Positions 1-8,963 of a stretch of DNA of 8,963 bases are shown here, in pieces. Both the position numbers and the translations under genes were made by a program. The stretch comes from an uncultured Bacilli bacterium. GTDB lineage: Bacteria; Bacillota_I; Bacilli_A; RF39; UBA660. Numbering within the stretch: the stretch's first letter is position 1; each line of letters starts with the position of its first letter. The stretch is from NCBI GenBank assembly GCA_934177545.1, contig CAKPPI010000035.1, positions 1 through 8,963 on the forward strand, in the 5' to 3' direction. The notes under the pieces were generated by a model. That model was not told where the DNA came from. It did no database searches and was given only the letters and a program-made list of their open reading frames with translations.

Positions 1-340
1 CCATGCCTTGAATACTAGGTAGAGCATTAGTTAATTCATCAAAGAAAACAATGTGAAGTTTATTAGGTTCTTTGTCACACTTTTCTTGTAATTTTTTATA
101 CCAAGTTGGGGGAACATCAAGCATTTCACCAGTACTGGCATTATAGACACTTTTGCCATTTAGACTGTCTGGAGTAGCATTTCTTAAATATAGAATTACA
201 CAATCCGGATCTAGTTGCTTTACTCTACTTGATTTGCCATCACTACTCCTGCCATGTAAGAAAACAGAAACATTACTTTGGATAGCCCCTTTAATAATGT
301 CTTCTTCACTTACTTTAGAAAAATCAAAATTGTATGAACT
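1..340 (-). repeat. Copy 1 of the direct nucleotide repeat formed by the ATPase cores (pairs with 3880-4219).
   Basis: Ungapped alignment at a constant offset of 3879 nt. The first 60 nt have 6 mismatches and the next 60 roughly 15, so my by-eye estimate is 80-90% identity overall. Similarity decays beyond about position 330/4209. The left limit is unknown because the window ends. Confidence 0.85.
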
Positions 341-1174
341 TGAAAATTTAGTATCTTTAATAGAATCTTTTATTGGAAGTAATTCTTCACTTAAACCTTG
401 GGTTAATTCTCTAGCAAAACAAGTATTTAAAAATTGATAAATTCTAGTTTCTTCAAACTTAGTAAAATTAGAATTATCCGCAAATTGAACACCAGCAAAT
501 AAAATTTTTTCACTTATCATTTGATGCTTTTTAGTATCTAGTAACCAATAAACTGGTTCTACATTAACCCAAATACTATCGCCATTTTTATACTTGGACT
601 TAAACCCATTATACAAGCCTGTATTGGCAACGGCTTTTATTAATCTTTTATCTTCTAATTTATATTCTTTAAAAGTAATAGGAGCAAAAATTTCATCATA
701 TTCGAATTCTTTTCTAGAATCTGCAGTGTAATAATTATTGGTTAATTGCAATTTACCCTGCTTTAGCATATTATCTAATTTCTCTTGTTCTAGCCCATTT
801 AAGGCCGATTGTGGATAATAACCGTATTTTACTTGAAAAATATGTTCCGTGGTTGTATCCAGATTTTTAGTTAATTCTTTTTCAATATTTTCAGGCAAAT
901 TATAAACAACTCTAGCCCCAATATCCCGCAAGCTAATACTATAAGTTGCCGAATAACCTTCTTCATCAACAATAATAACATTTTTATCACTACTAACTGT
1001 TGATTTAGTCCAATAAGGGCCATAATTTAATTTAGATTCAGGGTCATAATAAGCCCCTAAAATAATAGAATAATCAGTTAATGGTGATTTAGTACCCGCT
1101 ACTTTAAAGATTTCCAATACTTGATCATCATTACCAAAAACATCTTCGCCAGTTATAAAAGTAAAATCATTCAT
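1..1174 (-). CDS. AAA+ (AAA_5/MoxR-like) ATPase, paralogue B, with a divergent N-terminal domain. Only the 5' part (391 codons) is in the window; the 3' end runs off the left edge.
   Basis: Hand translation of the minus strand from ATG (complement of 1172-1174) is open to position 2 with no stop: MNDFTFITGEDVFGNDDQVLEIF...KYGYYPQS...IWVNVEPVYWLLD...FDFSKVSEEDIIKGAIQSNVSVFLHGRSSDGKSSRVKQLD...LHIVFFDELTNALPSIQGM. Walker A GRSSDGKS is at 230-253 and Walker B hhhhDE is present. It is missing from the ORF track because it has no in-window stop. Nucleotides 1-~340 align without gaps to 3880-~4219. Confidence 0.85.
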   Translation of the reverse strand, partial: MNDFTFITGEDVFGNDDQVLEIFKVAGTKSPLTDYSIILGAYYDPESKLNYGPYWTKSTVSSDKNVIIVDEEGYSATYSISLRDIGARVVYNLPENIEKELTKNLDTTTEHIFQVKYGYYPQSALNGLEQEKLDNMLKQGKLQLTNNYYTADSRKEFEYDEIFAPITFKEYKLEDKRLIKAVANTGLYNGFKSKYKNGDSIWVNVEPVYWLLDTKKHQMISEKILFAGVQFADNSNFTKFEETRIYQFLNTCFARELTQGLSEELLPIKDSIKDTKFSSSYNFDFSKVSEEDIIKGAIQSNVSVFLHGRSSDGKSSRVKQLDPDCVILYLRNATPDSLNGKSVYNASTGEMLDVPPTWYKKLQEKCDKEPNKLHIVFFDELTNALPSIQGM

Positions 1175-1194
1175 TTTTTTCAACTCTTTTCTTT

Positions 1195-2640
1195 TTAAAA
1201 TTTTCTTCTAAGCCCATAACCAGAAGAAAAGCCAGATAGTCGTTCTAAGGCCTCACTATCTATATAAATAACTTTGCCTCCAGGAGGATTAATTTTAGCA
1301 TTACCAAACACAATCCAGATAGCATTAACTCTCTTACTTGGCATATCGGCGTAACCATCAGTAAATATAATTTTATTTTCTACTCTTTTAGAAAAAGCAT
1401 TAACAGCAACATCAAAATCAGTACCCCCAAAGCCCACTAGAGGAAAAGTATCAATATCATTAATATTTCTTATTTCTTGAAAGCCATAGAATTTAGTATC
1501 AAAGCACCCTACTTTGACTTTTGAAGTTGTAAAAATATTTTTACATTCTCTTAAAAAATTACGTAATAAGGTCTCATCAATAGAGCCACTAGTATCTAAT
1601 ACTATTTCTGTAACTGGTTTGGGTATATCTTCTAAATGAGGAACAACACAGCCATCTTCAATGGTAGCATTTTGATAAGACCAATCAGTATCATAAGTAA
1701 TTGTCTCTCTTAAAAGACGACGCCAATCAATTAATGGTTTAGAACTACCAATATTATCTACATCTCTTTTTTCCATATTAGTTGTATTACCATGATTACT
1801 TGCTTCTTGGGCTAATGACTTTTTTAATTCTTCTAATACTTTAGCTCTTTCAATTTTATTTTGAGCAAATGCATTCTTTTCACCAATATTAGCAAATTTC
1901 TTTGTTAACTCTTTTACTTTCTTTTCTTTATCGCTTTTGTTATCTGATTCTCCATTGCTGTCTTTATTTTTAGAATCGGTATTTTGTTTATTTGGATTAG
2001 ATTTTTCTTTTTTACCACCCTCATAAGTATCGTTAGTCTTATTATTAGCTTTTTCTAAAGCTTTTTTCCATAATTCGTGGTTAGTTGGTGGGGTGATACT
2101 ATTAATATCAAAGTCGTCGCTTTCAATATTATTGCTAGAACTACTTTGAACACTTTGATTTCCTGAACCGTTAGATTTTTCTTGATTCTCATTTTCTTGT
2201 TGACTGTTAGAGTCGCCGTTAGCGCTCTTAGACTTTTCATTTTCTTGTTTAATTTGCATTAATTTTTCATATAATTCTTCGGCATTATAATTAATGGCAC
2301 CTTCTATTTCAACGGAACCTTTTAGTACTGGTAGTTTATCAATTTTTAAAAAAGCATTGGCAACGGCATCGCAGGCGATATTCCATATTGATGGGTCTTT
2401 TCCTATACTTCTATCAACATGCAGGAAAATGATATGACAAGTTTCATGAGCTAATACAAATACTTGTTCATCCAGTTTTAATTGGGAAAGAAAGGCCTCA
2501 TTATAATAAATATTATCACCATCAGTAGCGGCTGTTTTAGTACCCTCATCTTTTATATATTTTAAGTTAGCAATGACACTACCAAAGAAAGGATACTTTA
2601 TCAACATTTTTCTTTTTATTTTATCAATATCAACATTCAT
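1195..2640 (-). CDS. Two-domain protein: N-terminal HExxH putative Zn-metallopeptidase (DUF2201_N-like), a long low-complexity linker, and a C-terminal vWA-like domain with an intact MIDAS (DUF2201/CoxE-like VWA).
   Basis: 481-aa ORF. AHETCH (HExxH, nt 2434-2448) is followed by SIWNIACDAVANAFL. The Ser/Asn/Lys/Glu/Asp-rich linker spans about aa 131-245 (nt ~1906-2250). MIDAS elements are DTSGS (nt 1582-1596), GGTDF and IIFTDGYAD. An AGGAG RBS lies 5 nt upstream of the ATG and overlaps the stop of the upstream gene. Confidence 0.85.
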   Translation of the reverse strand: MNVDIDKIKRKMLIKYPFFGSVIANLKYIKDEGTKTAATDGDNIYYNEAFLSQLKLDEQVFVLAHETCHIIFLHVDRSIGKDPSIWNIACDAVANAFLKIDKLPVLKGSVEIEGAINYNAEELYEKLMQIKQENEKSKSANGDSNSQQENENQEKSNGSGNQSVQSSSSNNIESDDFDINSITPPTNHELWKKALEKANNKTNDTYEGGKKEKSNPNKQNTDSKNKDSNGESDNKSDKEKKVKELTKKFANIGEKNAFAQNKIERAKVLEELKKSLAQEASNHGNTTNMEKRDVDNIGSSKPLIDWRRLLRETITYDTDWSYQNATIEDGCVVPHLEDIPKPVTEIVLDTSGSIDETLLRNFLRECKNIFTTSKVKVGCFDTKFYGFQEIRNINDIDTFPLVGFGGTDFDVAVNAFSKRVENKIIFTDGYADMPSKRVNAIWIVFGNAKINPPGGKVIYIDSEALERLSGFSSGYGLRRKF

Positions 2641-2648
2641 AATTGCTC

Positions 2649-3050
2649 CTATATTATAGCTACTAAAGAAGCTACTTCTTCATTTAATTTATTACTATCT
2701 AAATCGGTTACTGTTAAGACAATCAAAGTGTTTTTAGGTAAGTCAAAAGTTGATATTTTCTTATATTTTAATATTTCTATAAATTTAGTTTGGCCGTTTA
2801 TATCTATTTTGTTAACGTTTCTAATCATAAGAACTGGTCTTGTTTTTTTAGCTTGCTCTAGAAGTTTGGTATACCAGTCTGGTGGGCAGAAGTCTACTCC
2901 TTCATAATGACCATTTAAGTCTTCTATTTTACAGTCATTAGCAAGAAGAATACTATTTTTGAAAATATCTTTGTACGTATCTTCTATTAATATAGGAAAC
3001 TCGCCTAATTTTAAATAGTCTTTTAATATTTCTAACTTTTCTTTATTCAT
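2649..3050 (-). CDS. 133-aa protein resembling the AAA core of the flanking ATPases but lacking Walker A and Walker B residues (putative catalytically dead AAA-like subunit).
   Basis: The ORF has a GAAGGAAAG RBS about 7 nt upstream and sits 8 nt from the next gene. By eye it aligns to ATPase A: PPDWYTKLLEQAKK vs PPTWYKKVVEKCEK; VLMIRNVNKI vs IVFFDELTNA; FDLPKNTLIVLTVTDLD vs WKLPKNARIVAAGNDLD. Where the ATPases have GRSSDGKS it has EDTYKDIF. Confidence 0.7.
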   Translation of the reverse strand: MNKEKLEILKDYLKLGEFPILIEDTYKDIFKNSILLANDCKIEDLNGHYEGVDFCPPDWYTKLLEQAKKTRPVLMIRNVNKIDINGQTKFIEILKYKKISTFDLPKNTLIVLTVTDLDSNKLNEEVASLVAII

Positions 3051-3085
3051 AAGTTTACTTTCCTTCTTCTTTAATCTTTATAAAT

Positions 3086-5080
3086 TTATAAGTTTGGTGT
3101 TTGATTATTATCCATATAATCTAATTGATTAAAAAAGTTAACCGCCTCTAGATATTGTTTGGCTTTTTTAGCTTTTACTAATTTTAGATTGTTAAGTGTT
3201 TCTAATCTTTTTGGATTATTGTAAGTCCAGATGGCATCAAACATTGATAATAACCCTTTACCAAACCAACTAATAAAGTCTCTAACTATTTCTAAATCTT
3301 CTTCTTTTGTCTGCATTGCTAAGCTAACTGTTGTAGCATACCTTTCTGAAGTGCCAATATGCGCATCTGCCACAGCTTCAATATCCCATTTCTTAGTTAT
3401 AATATCGTTATAGCTTATTGCTTTTTGATTACAGAATGCAATAAACTTTTTAGTTAAAACTTCACCAATTAAAGCTCTTAACATTTCAGGCTTACCAGTT
3501 TGGTATAAAACCTTAGAAGCCATTTCCCATTTTCTAGGGTCAGCATTAGGTTTCTTACCATCAAATCGTGTTCTTAAAATATTATGTTCATATAACTTTT
3601 CATAATAAATAAAGGCATAAATGGCAGGATGAATTTTCATAGGATTTTCTTTTGGCTCATAAGATAAAGACGTATAATTCTTACTTTCAGTAGCAGCCCA
3701 TTTTAACCAGTCATTGGTAGTTGTGTTGATATAAACATGGGCAAATCTATTAAATAGCGGTTCAGCCATTTCATTAGCAGCCAAAGAGTCATCTAAGTCA
3801 TTACCAGCCGCTACTATTCTTGCATTTTTAGGCAGTTTCCAGATGCCATTTACTTCGCCATCTAAAATAATATTAAAGGCCATGCCCTGAATACTAGGCA
3901 AAGCATTAGTTAGTTCATCAAAGAAAACAATATGAATTTTATCTGGCTCTTTTTCGCATTTTTCAACGACCTTTTTATACCAAGTTGGTGGTATATCAAG
4001 CATTTCACCAGTATTTTCATTATAAACAGATTTACCATTTAAACTATCAGGAGTAGCATTTCTTAAGTAAAGGATTGTACAATCATGGTCTAACTGTTTT
4101 ACTCTACTAGATTTACCATCGCTACTTCTACCATGTAAGAATACGGCTACATTACTAAGAATAACTCCTTTAATAATATCTTCTTCACTTACTTTAGAAA
4201 AATCTAAATGATATGGATTTGGTTCCTTTTGTAACTTTTCAGATTCTTCAGTCTCACTATGTTTAGGTTGATTAAATTGAAGCATTTGTGTTAATTCTTT
4301 AGCAAAAATATTATCTAAATACCACTTAATACCGGTTGCTTCAAAATTATTTTTATCATTTTTATTATATGAATAGCTGATATTAGAAAACAGTAAATAT
4401 TCACTTACTAAAAGATTAGTTTCTTTATCAACTAACCATTTAACTGGACTTACTTCTAGCCAAACAAAATCGTCTCTTTTTACTTTTCTACCATCATTTA
4501 AAGTAGCAAAATCACAGCAAGAACGATTTATAACTCTGACGTAATGCTTTCCTTCATAAATATATTCTGGAATAACTAAAGGTGAAAAATCACAATCTTT
4601 AGTAAGCCAATCATTCTTATCTACTGTGAAACTATTACCACTATATTCCAAATTAGAAATACTATATTCTTTTTCTAACTTTTTTTGCATATCATCTGAT
4701 ACTGCCATTTGAGGATAAAAGCCATATTCTACTTCTCTTAAAACATTTGGCTGCTTAGAACGTCTACAAAATAGTAAATTTCCTTTTTTGTCAATAAGAT
4801 TTTTGATATCGTCATTCATTGGTAATACTGGGCGTGATGCAACATTTTTTATATTATCAGCATCATGTTTTAAAGAACCACTGTAATTAACCACTACTAC
4901 TTCATCGTTAATTAAATTCTTTAGCCAGTAAAAGCCATAATGGTTATTATCAATAGCATTGTAACCACCAAGAAGAATAGAAAAATCTGTTTGAATTGCT
5001 TTTACTCCATATTTTTTTAAAACTGATAATTGATGTTCACCAAATACTTGTTCCTTATCTAAAAATGTAAAATCTGACAT
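3086..5080 (-). CDS. AAA+ (AAA_5/MoxR-like) ATPase, paralogue A, 664 aa: ~290-aa N-terminal domain, P-loop core, ~200-aa C-terminal region.
   Basis: Walker A GRSSDGKS (nt 4109-4132), Walker B IVFFDE (nt 3914-3931), sensor-1-like IVAAGN, and a MoxR-type PLFNRF motif. I prefer the ATG at 5080 (MSDFTF..., matching paralogue B MNDFTF...) over the track's GTG at 5089. The GTG lies inside an AAGGTG Shine-Dalgarno (5087-5092) 6 nt upstream of that ATG. Confidence 0.9.
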   Translation of the reverse strand: MSDFTFLDKEQVFGEHQLSVLKKYGVKAIQTDFSILLGGYNAIDNNHYGFYWLKNLINDEVVVVNYSGSLKHDADNIKNVASRPVLPMNDDIKNLIDKKGNLLFCRRSKQPNVLREVEYGFYPQMAVSDDMQKKLEKEYSISNLEYSGNSFTVDKNDWLTKDCDFSPLVIPEYIYEGKHYVRVINRSCCDFATLNDGRKVKRDDFVWLEVSPVKWLVDKETNLLVSEYLLFSNISYSYNKNDKNNFEATGIKWYLDNIFAKELTQMLQFNQPKHSETEESEKLQKEPNPYHLDFSKVSEEDIIKGVILSNVAVFLHGRSSDGKSSRVKQLDHDCTILYLRNATPDSLNGKSVYNENTGEMLDIPPTWYKKVVEKCEKEPDKIHIVFFDELTNALPSIQGMAFNIILDGEVNGIWKLPKNARIVAAGNDLDDSLAANEMAEPLFNRFAHVYINTTTNDWLKWAATESKNYTSLSYEPKENPMKIHPAIYAFIYYEKLYEHNILRTRFDGKKPNADPRKWEMASKVLYQTGKPEMLRALIGEVLTKKFIAFCNQKAISYNDIITKKWDIEAVADAHIGTSERYATTVSLAMQTKEEDLEIVRDFISWFGKGLLSMFDAIWTYNNPKRLETLNNLKLVKAKKAKQYLEAVNFFNQLDYMDNNQTPNL
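3880..4219 (-). repeat. Copy 2 of the direct nucleotide repeat formed by the ATPase cores (pairs with 1-340).
   Basis: See copy 1. Confidence 0.85.
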
Positions 5081-5086
5081 CCAAAT

Positions 5087-5108
5087 CACCTTGGGACATA
5101 TAATAACA
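5087..5108 (-). promoter_or_regulatory. Shine-Dalgarno (AAGGTG, 5087-5092) and a possible extended -10 (TGTTATTAT, 5100-5108) upstream of ATPase A.
   Basis: The SD is clear and well spaced from the ATG at 5080. The extended -10 is only a pattern match, has no good -35, and sits very close to the SD. Confidence 0.35.
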
Positions 5109-5121
5109 TATTTTCTTATAG

Positions 5122-5165
5122 AAAAGAAAAAAAGATATAGTCATGTGTTAAAAAAACTATATCTT
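5122..5165 (-). terminator. Weak AT-rich hairpin plus U-tract between the 408-aa gene and the ATPase operon.
   Basis: A 10-bp stem pairs AAGATATAGT (5132-5141) with ACTATATCTT (5156-5165) around a 14-nt loop. On the minus strand it is followed by TTTTTCTTTT. The stem has only two G-C pairs, and it lies about 275 nt downstream of the 408-aa stop. Confidence 0.35.
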
Positions 5166-5324
5166 AATTATATTTTATTGTTTATTTTCTAATTCTAAGG
5201 CTTTTAAATAAGTTCTATTCTTGTTTTTAAATCATTAGTTAGAGAATTTAATCTATTATTGCTTATATTGCTTATTCCGGACATTATTATAATAAATTGG
5301 CATTTTCATTGAACTTTTTTACCA

Positions 5325-5346
5325 TTTTTGGCACTTATTGTTCAAT
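5325..5346. repeat. ~21-nt direct repeat, copy 1 (TTTTTGGCACTTATTGTTCAAT).
   Basis: It matches 5401-5421 (TTTTGGGCACTTTTGTTCAAT) apart from two single-nucleotide indels. A partial inverted half-site, TTGGCATTTTCATTGAAC, lies at about 5298-5315. Confidence 0.5.
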
Positions 5347-5400
5347 AAATTTATATAATAATTATATAGAATTTTAAAAAGTTAATCAACATTTTTGCAG

Positions 5401-5421
5401 TTTTGGGCACTTTTGTTCAAT
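5401..5421. repeat. ~21-nt direct repeat, copy 2.
   Basis: See copy 1. The copies are 76 nt apart, in the 3' flank of the 408-aa gene. Confidence 0.5.
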
Positions 5422-5441
5422 GAAAAACATAATTTTATATT

Positions 5442-6668
5442 TCAAATGCCTAATTGATACGGTGAATTTGATGAACCATTGCCGGCAGTAATTATGATAT
5501 TTGATTTTAAATATAGCACTGGATAAACTCTGAAATCTTGCCAATAACTATACGCATCGCAAACATGTCCATTATCATCAATTCTAAACACTTTGTCTGT
5601 TGTATTTGTTATTAAAGTCATAGTCCAATAATAGTGTCCTTCTTTAAAAAGATAATCATTATTTCGACATTCTTCATAATCAGTAGTATGCCAAGTACTC
5701 GCGTTAGATTTAAGACAGTCATTTCTCGACTTTACAGCTCCACCAGAAGTGGCATAGCCATAATCACTAGGATATATTAACCCAACTTTTCCTAACCAGG
5801 TGGTTTTATATCCATCATTTATTTTTGTTCCTCTTTCTAAGTCGTAAAAATCTTTATAGGTTATTTCATTTGTACTGCTACCACCAATATGCCATACAAT
5901 ATTTTCTATTGCACTATGTGTTAGGTTACTTTTCAAACCAGATTTGCTGTAATCAACACTTTTAGGTTCAGAAGTAGTTGTACCAAAATAATATGTTCCT
6001 GACATTGCATAATAATAAGCACTATCATTTAGTAACTTTTTTAATGTTGAATTAGGCCAGTAGTTTGATGATGATTGATCTTTAGTATAATCAAAAGCTA
6101 AATTATCTATACTATCATTTCTAATTATTTTAATTAGATTCTCTTTAGTTCCATCCTCTTTTTCGATATTATTAAATACACCTATAATACGCCATTTTTC
6201 GCAAGCATCACTTGTCTGATTAGCATAATCACTACAATTAAAATAGACATAATTATCTGGATTTGCTCCTATATATCTTATATTATTATCAGCATCATCA
6301 CTTACCATATTGATAGAATCTGTACTGGCTAAATTAGTTATCTTTGTTACAGCATTTTCACCACTTTTAAAATATAGATTACATTTAACTTTGGTAGTAA
6401 AATTAGTAACATATAATCCCCATGAATCATTATCCCACTCGATATTAACATTGTTATCACAGTCAGCACTCGAAAAGACAACTGTTCCTTTTTCAGGAAA
6501 AGTATCTATTCTAGATTCATCTATAAAAATTGCCATTTGCTCTTTATCTACTAGATATTTATTATTTTGTTTTATTGATAATATTAAAAAAGTAATCACT
6601 AAAATACAAGATAATCCTATATAAAAGTATTCTTTTAATAATAATCTATTTAAATTAGCCTTCTTCAT
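5442..6668 (-). CDS. Membrane-anchored (single N-terminal TM) extracytoplasmic protein with 7 ectodomain Cys. Its C-terminal module carries motifs of the Firmicutes surface-protein 'WxxS..LN / SDYgYA / YWT.T / RVYPVLYLK' type.
   Basis: 408-aa ORF with N-terminus MKKANLNRLLLKEYFYIGLSCILVITFLILSI (basic then hydrophobic). Motifs: EKWRIIGVF, NLIKIIRND, NYWPNSTLKKLLND, GLIYPSDYGYATSGG, YYWTMT, FRVYPVLYLKS, and a terminal GNGSSNSPYQL. An AAGGA RBS lies about 9 nt upstream. The stop codon is TGA. Confidence 0.85.
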   Translation of the reverse strand: MKKANLNRLLLKEYFYIGLSCILVITFLILSIKQNNKYLVDKEQMAIFIDESRIDTFPEKGTVVFSSADCDNNVNIEWDNDSWGLYVTNFTTKVKCNLYFKSGENAVTKITNLASTDSINMVSDDADNNIRYIGANPDNYVYFNCSDYANQTSDACEKWRIIGVFNNIEKEDGTKENLIKIIRNDSIDNLAFDYTKDQSSSNYWPNSTLKKLLNDSAYYYAMSGTYYFGTTTSEPKSVDYSKSGLKSNLTHSAIENIVWHIGGSSTNEITYKDFYDLERGTKINDGYKTTWLGKVGLIYPSDYGYATSGGAVKSRNDCLKSNASTWHTTDYEECRNNDYLFKEGHYYWTMTLITNTTDKVFRIDDNGHVCDAYSYWQDFRVYPVLYLKSNIIITAGNGSSNSPYQLGI

Positions 6669-6738
6669 AATTCTTTATCCTTACTAATGTTAAGAATAAA
6701 ATATTTAAGTAATCATTATTTACAAATGATTTACACTT

Positions 6739-6765
6739 TTCATAGAGCTTAAAACTCTATGAAAA
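6739..6765. repeat. 27-nt repeat, left copy, itself a hairpin (TTCATAGAG-CTTAAAA-CTCTATGAA).
   Basis: TTCATAGAGCTTAAAACTCTATGAAAA. The reverse complement of 7002-7028 matches at 26 of 27 positions, including the asymmetric loop. The two copies are therefore in inverted orientation. Confidence 0.8.
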
Positions 6766-6803
6766 TTATAGGTGAAATCTGGGCTTAAATGCCATTTGAC
6801 TAG

Positions 6804-6911
6804 AATTTTGACCACAATAGTTTCTTTAATTAATGACTACAAAATACGTTTTAAAGTAAGGATTCACCTATGTTTGTAGTAAATTTATCTGACCACAATT
6901 TTGACCATAAT
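6804..6911. repeat. Three copies of TGACCA(C/T)AAT; two share the longer form AATTTTGACCAYAAT.
   Basis: Copies lie at 6804-6818 (AATTTTGACCACAAT), 6890-6899 (TGACCACAAT) and 6897-6911 (AATTTTGACCATAAT). The last two are tandem with a 12-13-nt period. Confidence 0.5.
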
Positions 6912-7001
6912 TAAGATTTTTTTCTAATAAATTTTTATAGAATTTAGCTAACTTTTATGGTATATTTATAATATAAGTTAAGATTAATGTGCGTTTTTTT
7001 G

Positions 7002-7028
7002 TTTTCATAGAGTTTTAAGTTCTATGAA
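7002..7028. repeat. 27-nt repeat, right (inverted) copy, followed by TTTTT on the plus strand.
   Basis: TTTTCATAGAGTTTTAAGTTCTATGAA. It is the inverted copy of 6739-6765 with one mismatch. Confidence 0.8.
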
Positions 7029-7063
7029 TTTTTCTTACTTTAAGTAATATACACTATAACGAC

Positions 7064-7112
7064 AAAACAGCTTATCTACTATATAAAATACTGTAGGTAG
7101 GCTGTTTTTAAT
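7064..7112. terminator. Long hairpin with flanking A and T tracts (bidirectional-type terminator) downstream of the yafQ-like gene.
   Basis: AACAGCTTATCTAC (7066-7079) pairs with GTAGGTAGGCTGTT (7093-7106) around a 13-nt loop, with AAAA upstream and TTTTT downstream. In plus-sense RNA all 14 positions pair (2 G.U). In minus-sense RNA those two positions become C.A mismatches. Confidence 0.5.
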
Positions 7113-7160
7113 TAATAAAATTAAAAAGAAACCTTAGAGATAGTTCCTTTTACATTAATG

Positions 7161-7469
7161 CTATTTTTCTAATATTTCACTATGACTGCCAGTAGTTACT
7201 AATAATAATACCAAATTATCATTGATATATTTGTAAACTAACAACCAGTCAGGTTTTAAATGACATTCCATACAATCTCTATAAGTTTTATCATTTATTA
7301 GGCTATGATTTCTATATTTTTCATCTAATTCTTCGCAATTTGCTAATCGTGTTATTACTTCAATTAAGATATTAATGTCTTTACCTTGCTTAACTATTTT
7401 TTTAAAATGTTTCTTAAATTCACTAGTATAATCTATTTTACATTTAGTATTTAAATCTAAGTTAATCAT
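7161..7469 (-). CDS. yafQ: Type II toxin, YafQ/RelE-family mRNA interferase.
   Basis: 102 aa. The pattern is YafQ-like: YTSEFKKHFKKIVKQGKD, ..YRNHSL.., TYRDCMECHLKPDWLLVYKY, TTGSHSE. The start overlaps the antitoxin stop by 8 nt (A-ATG-ATT-AA). Confidence 0.85.
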   Translation of the reverse strand: MINLDLNTKCKIDYTSEFKKHFKKIVKQGKDINILIEVITRLANCEELDEKYRNHSLINDKTYRDCMECHLKPDWLLVYKYINDNLVLLLVTTGSHSEILEK

Positions 7470-7755
7470 TTAGTATAGACCTTACCATTTCTTTGGCATT
7501 ATTGTAACCTTTTCTTTTTCCTTCTTTATATTCCTGCTCAATTATTTGACCTTCCTTCAAGGCAGTTTCTAATTCATCATTATATATTGGATTGGCTATT
7601 TCAAATGGCACTGCCTTTCTTTTTATAACCTGTTTTAAAGTCATATTAATTAAAGTAGTCATATTCAATCCCAAATCTTTTAATATGATAGTAGCCTCTT
7701 CTTTGTCTTTTGGATCAACGTGGACGTTTATAACTCCATTAGTTAGTGTTTGCAT
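7462..7755 (-). CDS. dinJ: Type II antitoxin, DinJ/RelB family (ribbon-helix-helix N-terminus).
   Basis: 97 aa. INVHVDPKDKEEATIILKDLGLNMTTLINMTLKQVIKRKAVPFEI is a typical DinJ N-terminal domain. An AAGAGGT RBS lies 6 nt upstream. It sits immediately upstream of, and overlaps, the YafQ-like toxin gene. Confidence 0.85.
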   Translation of the reverse strand: MQTLTNGVINVHVDPKDKEEATIILKDLGLNMTTLINMTLKQVIKRKAVPFEIANPIYNDELETALKEGQIIEQEYKEGKRKGYNNAKEMVRSILND

Positions 7756-7783
7756 ATGTTTACCTCTTTTCTTTGATATTAAT

Positions 7784-7812
7784 ATATTATCATATATTGT
7801 ATTTTATGTCAA
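7784..7812 (-). promoter_or_regulatory. Sigma-70-type promoter of the dinJ-yafQ operon.
   Basis: Minus strand reads TTGACA (7807-7812), a 17-nt spacer ending in TGA (extended -10 TGn), then TAATAT (7784-7789). This lies about 30 nt upstream of the antitoxin ATG. The AT palindrome ATATTAATAT (7776-7785) overlaps the -10 and could be an operator, but such palindromes are common in DNA this AT-rich. Confidence 0.55.
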
Positions 7813-7841
7813 TTCATTATATATACATTATCTACATATTA

Positions 7842-8180
7842 TCAATATGCGTTGCTACCTGTAATACTAAAATTATTTAAATAAATATAAATAATACACA
7901 TTCCTAAAAAATTATTAATATTAATATGTATATTATAAAATATTAAATAAGTTATCATAATTTGTAAGAATTTATTACATATATTAAAATAATGGTATTT
8001 CCTAAATAAATAGATAATAATAAAAATAGGTATATATAATAAATTATGAGTTAAATAAATAATTATAATAAGACTTAATATATTTAAATAATCTTTATGA
8101 TAAGTTAAATAGAATAAATAAAGGCTAGTATTAAAAGGGGTTAATGAATAAAATAAGATATCTAGTATTAAGTAAATCAT
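7842..8180 (-). CDS. mreD: Small polytopic membrane protein, probable MreD.
   Basis: It follows mreC with an ATGA stop/start overlap (ATG = complement of 8178-8180). There are about four hydrophobic segments rich in I/L/Y/F. A 113-codon open frame in DNA of roughly 10-12% GC is unlikely by chance, because stop codons are AT-rich. The track's TTG start at 8207 was not used. The MreD call rests on position and topology, not on recognised motifs. Confidence 0.5.
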   Translation of the reverse strand: MIYLILDILFYSLTPFNTSLYLFYLTYHKDYLNILSLIIIIYLTHNLLYIPIFIIIYLFRKYHYFNICNKFLQIMITYLIFYNIHININNFLGMCIIYIYLNNFSITGSNAY

Positions 8181-8758
8181 ATAGTATACTCCGTAAGGAT
8201 TAAACAATAATTAGTATCTATAGGATTTAGGATTATATTACAGATAGTATTATTATCTTTAATACTGCAGGTATCTATAGTACCTATTAATAAATTACTA
8301 GGTAAATTAGTTAAACCACTAGTATAAATATTAGTATTTTTATCAATATTTACTTCTTTATTTATAATTACTTTATTATCTTTATATAGTCCTAAAGTAT
8401 TTCCTACTTTTATCGAGATGGTAAGATTTGAAATAGGCACTAAAGTATTATTGGTATTAGTTATTCCTATTAATCCTTTATCGTTTATAACCGGATGTTT
8501 GGGTTCTATTAAGGAGTTACTTTTTAAATAGTAAATATTACTATTATAAAGGTTTTTAATTAAGATTTTACTTATTATATAGTCATAATTATTATATTTA
8601 ATATTACTTAAAGTTTCTATTTCTTCTTTTAAAGAATAGTTTTCTAATTCTAATAAGTTATATTTTACTTTATCTATATCATTACTTTTTATTAAATCTA
8701 AAAAAGGATTAATTAGTAAAATAAGTAATATTGGGATATATTTTAAATATTTTTTCAT
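8177..8758 (-). CDS. mreC: Rod shape-determining protein MreC.
   Basis: N-terminal TM (KYIPILLILLINPF), a coiled-coil-like LELENYSLKEEIETL, then MreC-type beta-domain motifs: VINDKGLIGITNT, ISIKVGNTLG, IYTSGLTNLPSNLLIGTI. I prefer the ATG at 8758 (MKKYLKY) over the track's GTG at 8767; either is possible. Confidence 0.8.
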   Translation of the reverse strand: MKKYLKYIPILLILLINPFLDLIKSNDIDKVKYNLLELENYSLKEEIETLSNIKYNNYDYIISKILIKNLYNSNIYYLKSNSLIEPKHPVINDKGLIGITNTNNTLVPISNLTISIKVGNTLGLYKDNKVIINKEVNIDKNTNIYTSGLTNLPSNLLIGTIDTCSIKDNNTICNIILNPIDTNYCLILTEYTI

Positions 8759-8777
8759 AATAATCACATTTATAGTA

Positions 8778-8806
8778 TGAAAAAAATCGTATGGTTTTAT
8801 ACGATT
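8778..8806 (-). terminator. Rho-independent terminator after the short DinJ-like ORF.
   Basis: Minus-strand RNA: AAUCGUAU-AAAACC-AUACGAUU followed by UUUUU. The 8-bp stem pairs 8785-8792 with 8799-8806, with a 6-nt loop. The stem overlaps the TAA stop codon. Confidence 0.6.
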
Positions 8807-8963
8807 ATTTGTTATTGGTTATTTTAAAGGGAATACTATTTTTTATAATAAGTTGTTTTATGGTCATATTTATATAAGTATTTAAATCTAGTCCTAACTT
8901 TTCTAATATTTCTTGGGCTAGTTTTAGGTCTTTATTATCTATTTCTATTGTTATATTTTCCAT
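8805..8963 (-). CDS. Short (52 aa) DinJ/RelB-like ribbon-helix-helix protein with no adjacent toxin gene.
   Basis: Hand translation from the ATG at the window edge (complement of 8961-8963): MENITIEIDNKDLKLAQEILEKLGLDLNTYINMTIKQLIIKNSIPFKITNNK*. It aligns clearly with the N-terminal half of the 97-aa DinJ at 7462-7755 (shared I.D.KD...A..IL..LGL...T.INMT.KQ.I....PF.I). It was not in the ORF track. The true start could lie beyond the window. Confidence 0.6.
   Translation of the reverse strand: MENITIEIDNKDLKLAQEILEKLGLDLNTYINMTIKQLIIKNSIPFKITNNK

Follow-up and report, generated by a model that had tools for sequence, protein, structure and literature searches.

Conserved motor and diverged heads in paralogous MoxR-like ATPases of a gut Bacilli gene cassette

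The locus studied here raises the question of why two neighboring ATPase genes share a nearly unchanged core and differ strongly in their N-terminal parts. It lies on a stretch of 8,963 nucleotides (nt) from an uncultured Bacilli bacterium (contig CAKPPI010000035.1 of assembly GCA_934177545.1), called the window below, and the two genes encode the paralogous ATPases A and B. The nearest genomes are "uncultured Bacilli" metagenome-assembled genomes from Hadza gut metagenomes; related loci are numbered from L001. We consider it likely that each protein joins a strongly constrained AAA+ motor to an independently evolving recognition head, and that both belong to an operon with a stub of the motor and a protein combining a zinc peptidase with a von Willebrand factor A (vWA) domain. 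All genes of the window are on the minus strand; those of the cassette and their parts, in amino acids (aa) where proteins are concerned, are as follows.

2-1174, minus strand: ATPase B, 391 aa visible, C-terminus lost at the window edge (open reading frame and translation); head 398-1174, linker 326-397, core 2-325
1195-2640, minus strand: zinc-metallopeptidase-vWA protein, 481 aa (DUF2201_N and DUF2201, phrog_1314); HExxH (HETCH) at 2434-2448, metal-ion-dependent adhesion site (MIDAS) DxSxS (DTSGS) at 1582-1596
2649-3050, minus strand: 133-aa protein, a predicted P-loop-less, Walker-B-dead stub paralogous to the ATPase core
3086-5080, minus strand: ATPase A, 664 aa from MSDFTF; head, linker, MoxR-like AAA+ core and C-terminal helical lid
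4286-5080, minus strand: head of A, a beta-rich N-terminal domain, aa 1-265
4196-4285, minus strand: linker of A, aa 266-295, variable and disordered, with the sharp mosaic boundary at its 3' end
3701-4195, minus strand: AAA+ core of A, aa 296-460; Walker A GRSSDGKS at 4109-4132, Walker B IVFFDE at 3914-3931, NRF motif at 3734-3751

A and the 133-aa gene are separated by 35 nt, the 133-aa and vWA genes by 8 nt, and the vWA gene and B by 20 nt; at this spacing the four genes read as one operon, which would be transcribed in the order ATPase A, dead stub, zinc-peptidase-vWA protein, ATPase B. A third ATPase probably lies past the left edge of the window, by analogy with the near-identical strain L003, where a third paralog C comes after B.

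The boundary between head and core

A first-pass annotation of the window had described an ungapped DNA repeat, identity close to 90% from the motif DFSKVSEED onward, and about one-third identity over the N-terminal ~285 aa, and these descriptions hold. Positions 1-300 align without gaps to 3880-4179 at 81% identity, and the match resumes at 316-341 versus 4195-4220. From DFSKVSEED, which starts at aa 293 in A and aa 284 in B, 108 codons align gap-free with 88% amino acid and 82% nucleotide identity, and the 274 aligned codons of the N-terminal part give 32% and 53%, respectively. The short N-terminal motifs listed by the annotation are all present and fall on invariant or near-invariant columns of the whole family (T31, D32, Y119, G120, Y122, P123, Q124, W207, V210, P212, W215, and D218). 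In full-length relatives, where orthologs of B have 629-635 aa (L001, L003, L010), the near-identical stretch covers ~165 aa and ends at NRFAHVYI; the comparison with L001 places a second conserved patch after it (DGKKPNADPRKWEMASK...) and gives ~50% identity in the C-terminal lid.

It is hardly conceivable that the duplicated core is an assembly artefact of a single gene. The window does come from a metagenome-type source, and nothing more specific favors such an origin; the copies differ at 18% of nucleotides, and the order A, stub, vWA, B recurs in independent assemblies from different studies.

The step from head to core is found throughout the family. Of the 8,000 candidates scored in a search with A, 3,021 proteins reached E <= 0.001, so the family has at least 3,000 members, and among 114 aligned members mean pairwise identity rises from ~0.5 to ~0.9 at aa ~297. 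Between nine head clusters the heads are 33% identical, the cores 85% (minimum 75%), and the tails 59%; a survey of homologs, proposed in the annotation, therefore finds that the heads are not conserved to the same degree as the cores. Modeled alone by AlphaFold2 (AF2), the head of A is predicted with confidence (predicted local distance difference test, pLDDT, 89.5; predicted template modeling score, pTM, 0.87), in the model of A pLDDT falls below 50 at linker positions aa 267-281, and the linker differs in length among alleles. From the family-wide step, together with the succession of confident head, disordered linker, and AAA+ module, it follows that the sharp mosaic boundary between A and B is a domain boundary, separating two modules under very different constraint. 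Taken alone, a conserved ATPase with diverged N-termini is an ordinary domain-boundary effect.

Selection on the core and age of the heads

Two processes could keep the cores alike, purifying selection and gene conversion, and they were distinguished by region-wise comparison of nonsynonymous and synonymous divergence (dN and dS, Nei-Gojobori). In the window pair, dS is ~1.1 in the core and ~1.0 in the head, with dN/dS of 0.07 and 0.68, respectively; the proportion of synonymous differences (pS) is 0.58 in the core and 0.56 in the head, both saturated. The longest run identical between A and B is 26 nt, a length expected by chance (codon-shuffling permutation, p = 0.34). Since synonymous saturation is equal on both sides of the boundary and the longest run is of chance length, the similarity of the two cores in the window is due to purifying selection and not to recent conversion.

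We therefore regard it as very improbable that recent A/B conversion in this genome keeps only the core identical, as the annotation had offered in its second explanation. Relatives do contain long exact runs (80 nt between A and B of L001, p = 0.003; 273 nt between the tandem paralogs B and D of L006, p = 0.0002), and A cores of the L001 type are nearer to B cores (nucleotide identity 0.90-0.93) than to other A cores (0.85-0.88). Against it stand the saturated pS of the window pair in both regions, the 82% nucleotide identity of its cores, the chance length of its longest run, and the equal amino acid conservation among family members of different organisms.

The other explanation, a conserved engine joined to a diversified specificity or sensor domain, fares better. 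It agrees with the family-wide step, the autonomous head, the diversity-generating retroelements of sister cassettes described below, and the polymorphism of close A alleles, where the ratio of nonsynonymous to synonymous differences (pN/pS) is 0.67-0.84 in the head versus 0.02-0.14 in the core. What does not stand is recent diversification between the two proteins, since the heads of A and B are old types, each conserved separately.

Hypermutation of the head in sister cassettes

In the sister cassettes L019 and L020, a reverse transcriptase (RT) of 339-345 aa is encoded directly upstream of the head-ATPase gene, and further upstream lies a template repeat (TR), whose paired variable repeat (VR) is within head codons ~69-98. 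The mismatches between the two repeats fall at template adenines in 11 of 14 cases in L019 (Fisher p 9e-5) and in 14 of 16 cases in L020 (p 1e-6). Both loci thus carry a complete diversity-generating retroelement (DGR), and the family alignment locates the segment homologous to the VR in A (in B it is aa 65-94).

L019 6626-8292: complete DGR (TR, RT, VR)
L020 3493-5297: complete DGR (TR, RT, VR)
4820-4906 of the window, minus strand: segment of A homologous to the VR, aa 59-87, DEVVVVNYSGSLKHDADNIKNVASRPVLP

In the clade of DGR-bearing heads the entropy maximum falls on the VR segment, and the 90%-identity cluster of this clade holds 818 distinct sequences. Because the sister cassettes hypermutate the homologous segment by means of a DGR, we think that the head is probably a recognition module. 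A tblastn search with the RT of L020 found RT genes only in L019 and L020, and none in the window or in L001-L018; these loci have no TR either. A rule by which a cassette has either a DGR with one ATPase or several ATPases and no DGR is at best a tendency, as L021-L023 have one ATPase and no RT. Nor do close A alleles vary in a DGR-like pattern; their variation is spread over several loops and the linker, without a VR-like block. L019 and L020 have their last three TR/VR mismatches in common (A>C, C>T, T>C), and these may mark the boundary for initiation of mutagenic homing (IMH).

The head is a widespread autonomous module. A search with the 290-aa head found at least 1,433 representative clusters at E <= 1e-3, 904 of them at E <= 1e-10. 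Many of the homologs are stand-alone proteins of 260-350 aa, and others are joined to ankyrin, leucine-rich or pentapeptide repeats or to other NTPases. Pfam family DUF6273 was reported as a C-type-lectin-like DGR target (PMC10743442; bioRxiv 10.1101/2024.10.15.618418). A C-type-lectin fold was expected for the head, but a Foldseek search with the head model gave no lectin structure.

Recombination through the core

The annotation had further proposed that the two repeats are a substrate for recombination, which would delete the 133-aa and peptidase-vWA genes and leave a chimeric ATPase. Within the window they are a poor substrate, the ~340-bp repeat having 82% identity and exact runs of 26 nt at most. 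Related contigs apparently contain the predicted product: three database proteins (L016, L017, L018) consist of an A head and a B tail, and the 133-aa and peptidase-vWA genes are absent.

L016 1514-3427: fused A::B ATPase gene, no stub or vWA gene
L017 311-2236: fused A::B ATPase gene, no stub or vWA gene
L018 224-2149: fused A::B ATPase gene, no stub or vWA gene

The 5.4-kb contig of L016 has the order MreC-MreD-[A head::B tail]-M23-M50 and so includes both chromosomal flanks. L017 and L018, from two other samples, are ~97-100% identical to the A allele of L010 until the core and to its B allele thereafter, with different breakpoints inside the core, one in a 58-nt stretch identical between A and B at HIVFFDELTNALPSIQGM and the other near VKQLDPDC. 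The long exact runs of L001 and L006 are, for their part, compatible with gene conversion. Since they stay similar, the cores act as sites of homologous exchange in other members of the family.

Exchange between strains is seen in the window itself. In a sliding-window comparison with L003 it is ~100% identical over 5560-8963 and 98-100% over 1-2590, and only ~80% identical over the block between them.

2593-5560, minus strand: allelic-replacement block of ~3 kb comprising the region upstream of A, A, the stub, and ~45 nt from the start of the vWA gene; L003 7737-10490

A block of ~80% identity inside flanks of 98-100% indicates that strains exchange A together with the stub, which is consistent with selection for diversity at the A position and suggests that the stub is matched to the ATPase at that position.

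These observations could also be taken to mean that repeated exchange among paralogs and strains mainly keeps the core uniform, with purifying selection secondary. Besides the long identical tracts, the fusions, and the replaced allelic block, such concerted evolution is favored by the discordance of the core tree with the head tree, and by the A alleles of L010 and L005, where pS of the core (0.33) exceeds that of the head (0.11), so that the core has a separate history. We nevertheless hold it to be unlikely as the main cause: all comparisons, those of dS-saturated pairs among them, give core dN/dS of 0.02-0.14, so that selection alone suffices, and the cores are at least 75% identical across head clusters and hosts.

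The motor and its partners

The motor is a MoxR-like AAA+ ATPase (MoxR/MCM/dynein clade). Walker A (GRSSDGKS) and Walker B (IVFFDE) are intact in both A and B, and A matches phrog_1297, "ATPase", with E 2.1e-40 over aa 304-647. Its AF2 model finds by Foldseek NorQ of the NorQD complex as its best match among solved structures (9qhg_E, E 1.8e-5, probability 1.0), as well as MCM subunits and dynein, and phage AAA_5 ATPases with E values down to 2.5e-14. At the sequence level the relationship is remote. A stays below the gathering score of Pfam AAA_5 (16.2 bits, cut-off 22, E 0.011) with an alignment that spans only the C-terminal half of the model, its homologs behaving alike, and this sub-threshold hit is the sole match of the A, B, 133-aa, and neighboring 408-aa proteins in Pfam, NCBIfam, and PADLOC. 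In sequence and profile searches against the PDB, neither the ATPase module nor the profiles of the family and of the head gave a meaningful match. Two ATPase modules in tandem in one polypeptide, or two heads before one ATPase, occur in some relatives (P0017, 1018 aa; P0016 and P0019-P0022, ~890-936 aa).

The 133-aa "hypothetical" protein is predicted to be a catalytically dead stub of the ATPase core. It matches the core by BLASTP with E 3e-5, and by hhalign of the two families with probability 91% and E 1.1e-6 over A aa 342-431; it has no P-loop, and the Asp-Glu of Walker B is substituted. The stub directly follows an ATPase in every cassette examined. The vWA gene, with an intact MIDAS, starts 8 nt past it and is present in all complete loci; its product matches Pfam DUF2201_N (E 5e-33) and DUF2201 (E 3e-13) and phrog_1314 (E 6.9e-67). 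The spacer between peptidase and vWA (protein aa ~135-270) is long, of low complexity, and rich in N, S, K, and E, and alleles have 481, 494, or 504 aa.

All related loci whose sequence reaches far enough keep the order ATPase, stub, peptidase-vWA, even at ~50% identity, with one to three ATPase copies per cassette. The sites differ: the interval between mreD and the M23/M50 genes, or positions beside addAB, HipA-like or helix-turn-helix genes, or ftsY. One cassette adjoins a Mob_Pre relaxase gene. In L021 (4778-6935), which has a single ATPase, the cassette comes after two genes, one for a DUF87 (HerA-like) ATPase and one of 132 aa, and cassette and preceding genes together are inserted between ftsY/ylxM-like and ackA genes.

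The operon is a chromosomal variant of the MoxR-vWA-metallopeptidase pair of phages. That it is the remnant of a phage virion-assembly chaperone and protease, with heads binding structural proteins, we judge improbable. The best profile matches are the phage families phrog_1297 and phrog_1314, 479 phage records contain a homolog of the ATPase module, and the pair has been described in phages (PMC7824862). The phage homologs, however, span only A aa ~302-603 at 26-29% identity and have no head. Neither the window nor any of 20 related loci contains phage structural or replication genes; the neighbors of these loci are MreCD, M23/M50 peptidases, AddAB, FtsY, and toxin-antitoxin genes, and the whole window has no megablast match in phage or plasmid collections. 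One relative lies on an IMG/VR contig, with no phage genes in the 11.6 kb examined.

Possible function

Taken together, we suggest that the paralogs would form AAA+ rings, separate or mixed, which would dock to the MIDAS vWA domain of the peptidase protein after the model of NorQ-NorD, CbbQ-CbbO, and RavA-ViaA. The heads would choose the ligand or substrate, and ATP hydrolysis could remodel the substrate, hand it to the peptidase, or activate the peptidase. If the ATPases share one partner, and perhaps also rings, the extreme constraint on the core would be accounted for.

Several points weigh against this interpretation. Ring composition, vWA docking, and ligand binding by the heads are carried over from MoxR-vWA systems. 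The window has no TR/VR repeat pair, and the DGR-bearing heads share only ~33% identity with A and B. For the head model, the PDB contains no fold match (Foldseek, best E 0.19); DUF6273 (PF19789) does not match A or B of the window even at E <= 10, and the homologs that match it, with E 4e-6 to 0.14, do so only at profile positions 117-168 (~50 residues). Given the absence of a PDB relative and the partial DUF6273 match, a lectin-like binding fold is not established. Among close A alleles, nonsynonymous to synonymous changes stand at 12:0 and 9:0 in some loop windows of the head, which were chosen post hoc with the data already inspected. An ancient conversion between A and B in the window is possible, since dS is saturated. 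Finally, the L001 and L006 tracts and the fusion contigs, all from short-read metagenome assemblies, could be chimeric joins; short-read assemblers are able to join paralogs through identical stretches.

A role as a conflict or defense sensor is attractive in view of DGR targeting, allele turnover, copy-number variation, island-like placement next to toxin-antitoxin genes, and the Mob_Pre relaxase neighbor. Counting against it, PADLOC-DB 2.0 gave no match at E <= 1 for A, B, the vWA-peptidase, or the 133-aa and 408-aa proteins. It is conceivable, if rather doubtful, that the cassette represents an undescribed sensor-effector (conflict or anti-phage) system of gut Firmicutes, in which one motor and one vWA-zinc-peptidase effector would be combined with interchangeable recognition heads and the core would double as the recombination site that reshuffles them. 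Head diversity would then come from germline arrays of 2-3 paralogs as in the window, from a DGR acting on a single head (L019, L020), or from allele swaps of A plus stub.

Relation to known systems

The system looks like an undescribed variant of MoxR-vWA systems. Its closest counterpart is the MoxR-vWA chaperone-cochaperone pair of jumbo phages, in which the vWA protein carries a fused metallopeptidase (Iyer et al. 2021, PMC7824862). Both have an AAA_5/MoxR-like ATPase beside a DUF2201_N (HExxH) and DUF2201 (vWA) protein, corresponding to PHROGs 1297 and 1314. The phage ATPases lack the ~290-aa head, and the phage pair has neither stub nor paralog array; the window context is chromosomal, and the virion-assembly role of the phage pair is itself only a proposal. 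With NorQ-NorD, CbbQ-CbbO, and RavA-ViaA the cassette shares a gene for a MoxR-clade AAA+ ring beside one for a MIDAS vWA partner. It differs from them in sequence similarity, which is below the Pfam AAA_5 threshold and without a PDB sequence match, and in that here the partner bears a peptidase and the ATPase is multiplied and carries a variable head.

The combination of MoxR and vWA with a peptidase and a DGR-mutable ligand-binding domain is also known from the vWA-MoxR(-VMAP) ternary conflict systems (Kaur et al. 2020, PMC7159879) and from the MoxR-associated DGR targets of Thiohalocapsa and cyanobacteria (Dore et al. 2024, PMC10907252), both proposed to be sensor-effector systems. There the vWA or target protein carries the variable C-type-lectin domain and a VMAP protein carries the peptidase, whereas in the window the variable head is on the ATPase and the peptidase on the vWA protein; in the MoxR-associated targets of other phyla, too, the variable domain belongs to a separate protein (PMC10907252). 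The cassettes, in which no VMAP profile was run, showed no VMAP protein and have no third large conserved partner, the stub being their only conserved extra gene. The hosts of those systems are multicellular bacteria, and the hosts here are gut Firmicutes. The tentaclins, DGR variable proteins with DUF6273 (PMC10743442; bioRxiv 10.1101/2024.10.15.618418), resemble some head homologs, which match the C-terminal part of DUF6273 exactly at the VR; they are phage receptor-binding proteins with immunoglobulin-like domains and no ATPase, and the window proteins do not match DUF6273. An N-terminal VR is rare, with 3 cases among 372 DGRs, and the only DGR targets for which AAA-type motifs were noted are those of bacteria of the candidate phyla radiation (PMC5758913). 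In the DGR surveys that we read we found no mention of a cytoplasmic-looking target fused to an AAA+ motor with a near-N-terminal VR.

MoxR-vWA pairs are common, and the basis of their substrate selection is mostly unknown. Here a candidate substrate selector is visible as a separate head, which is multiplied, swapped between strains, and hypermutated by DGRs in sister loci. The fusion of a VR-bearing head to an AAA+ motor would link DGR diversification to an ATP-driven peptidase system in abundant bacteria of the human and animal gut, and one motor with many heads makes a testable case. The fusions further indicate that a strongly conserved domain can serve as a built-in recombination site, fusing paralogs and deleting the genes between them.

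Genomic neighborhood

The remaining genes of the window are the following.

5442-6668, minus strand: membrane-anchored 408-aa protein
7161-7755, minus strand: YafQ/RelB toxin-antitoxin pair
7842-8767, minus strand: MreD- and MreC-like genes

The C-terminal end of the 408-aa protein (YYWTMT...RVYPVLYLKS) is similar to the YW..K...RPVLP motifs of the ATPase heads. Two bigger relatives of it (656 and 445 aa) are encoded at 5327-8717 of L001, one with a glycine-rich ALK_LTK_GRD match. The genes of the YafQ/RelE-family toxin and the RelB/DinJ antitoxin overlap by 8 nt and are situated between the MreCD-like genes and the cassette; in L002 a short RelB-like open reading frame is likewise located upstream of mreC. 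With 16-20% GC, the MreD- and MreC-like genes are extremely rich in A and T. In L001, L010, and L016 the cassette lies between mreD and the M23/M50 peptidase genes, a position which in Bacillus is that of minCD and spoIVFA/FB.

Scans of the window for Rfam families, tRNAs, promoters, and terminators were uninformative. An AT-rich intergenic element at 6661-7033 contains a palindrome twice (TTCATAGAG...CTCTATGAA), with hairpins at 6739-6765 and 7002-7028, and bears repeated TTTTGACCACAAT-like motifs. L001, L003, L006, and L010 have copies of the element (~76% identity) immediately past their last ATPase gene, so that copies flank the cassette region. Upstream of gene A, a 33-nt direct repeat occurs twice (5317-5349 and 5392-5424, 73% identical); the repeats are near a promoter-like site at 5389-5361 and could be an operator.

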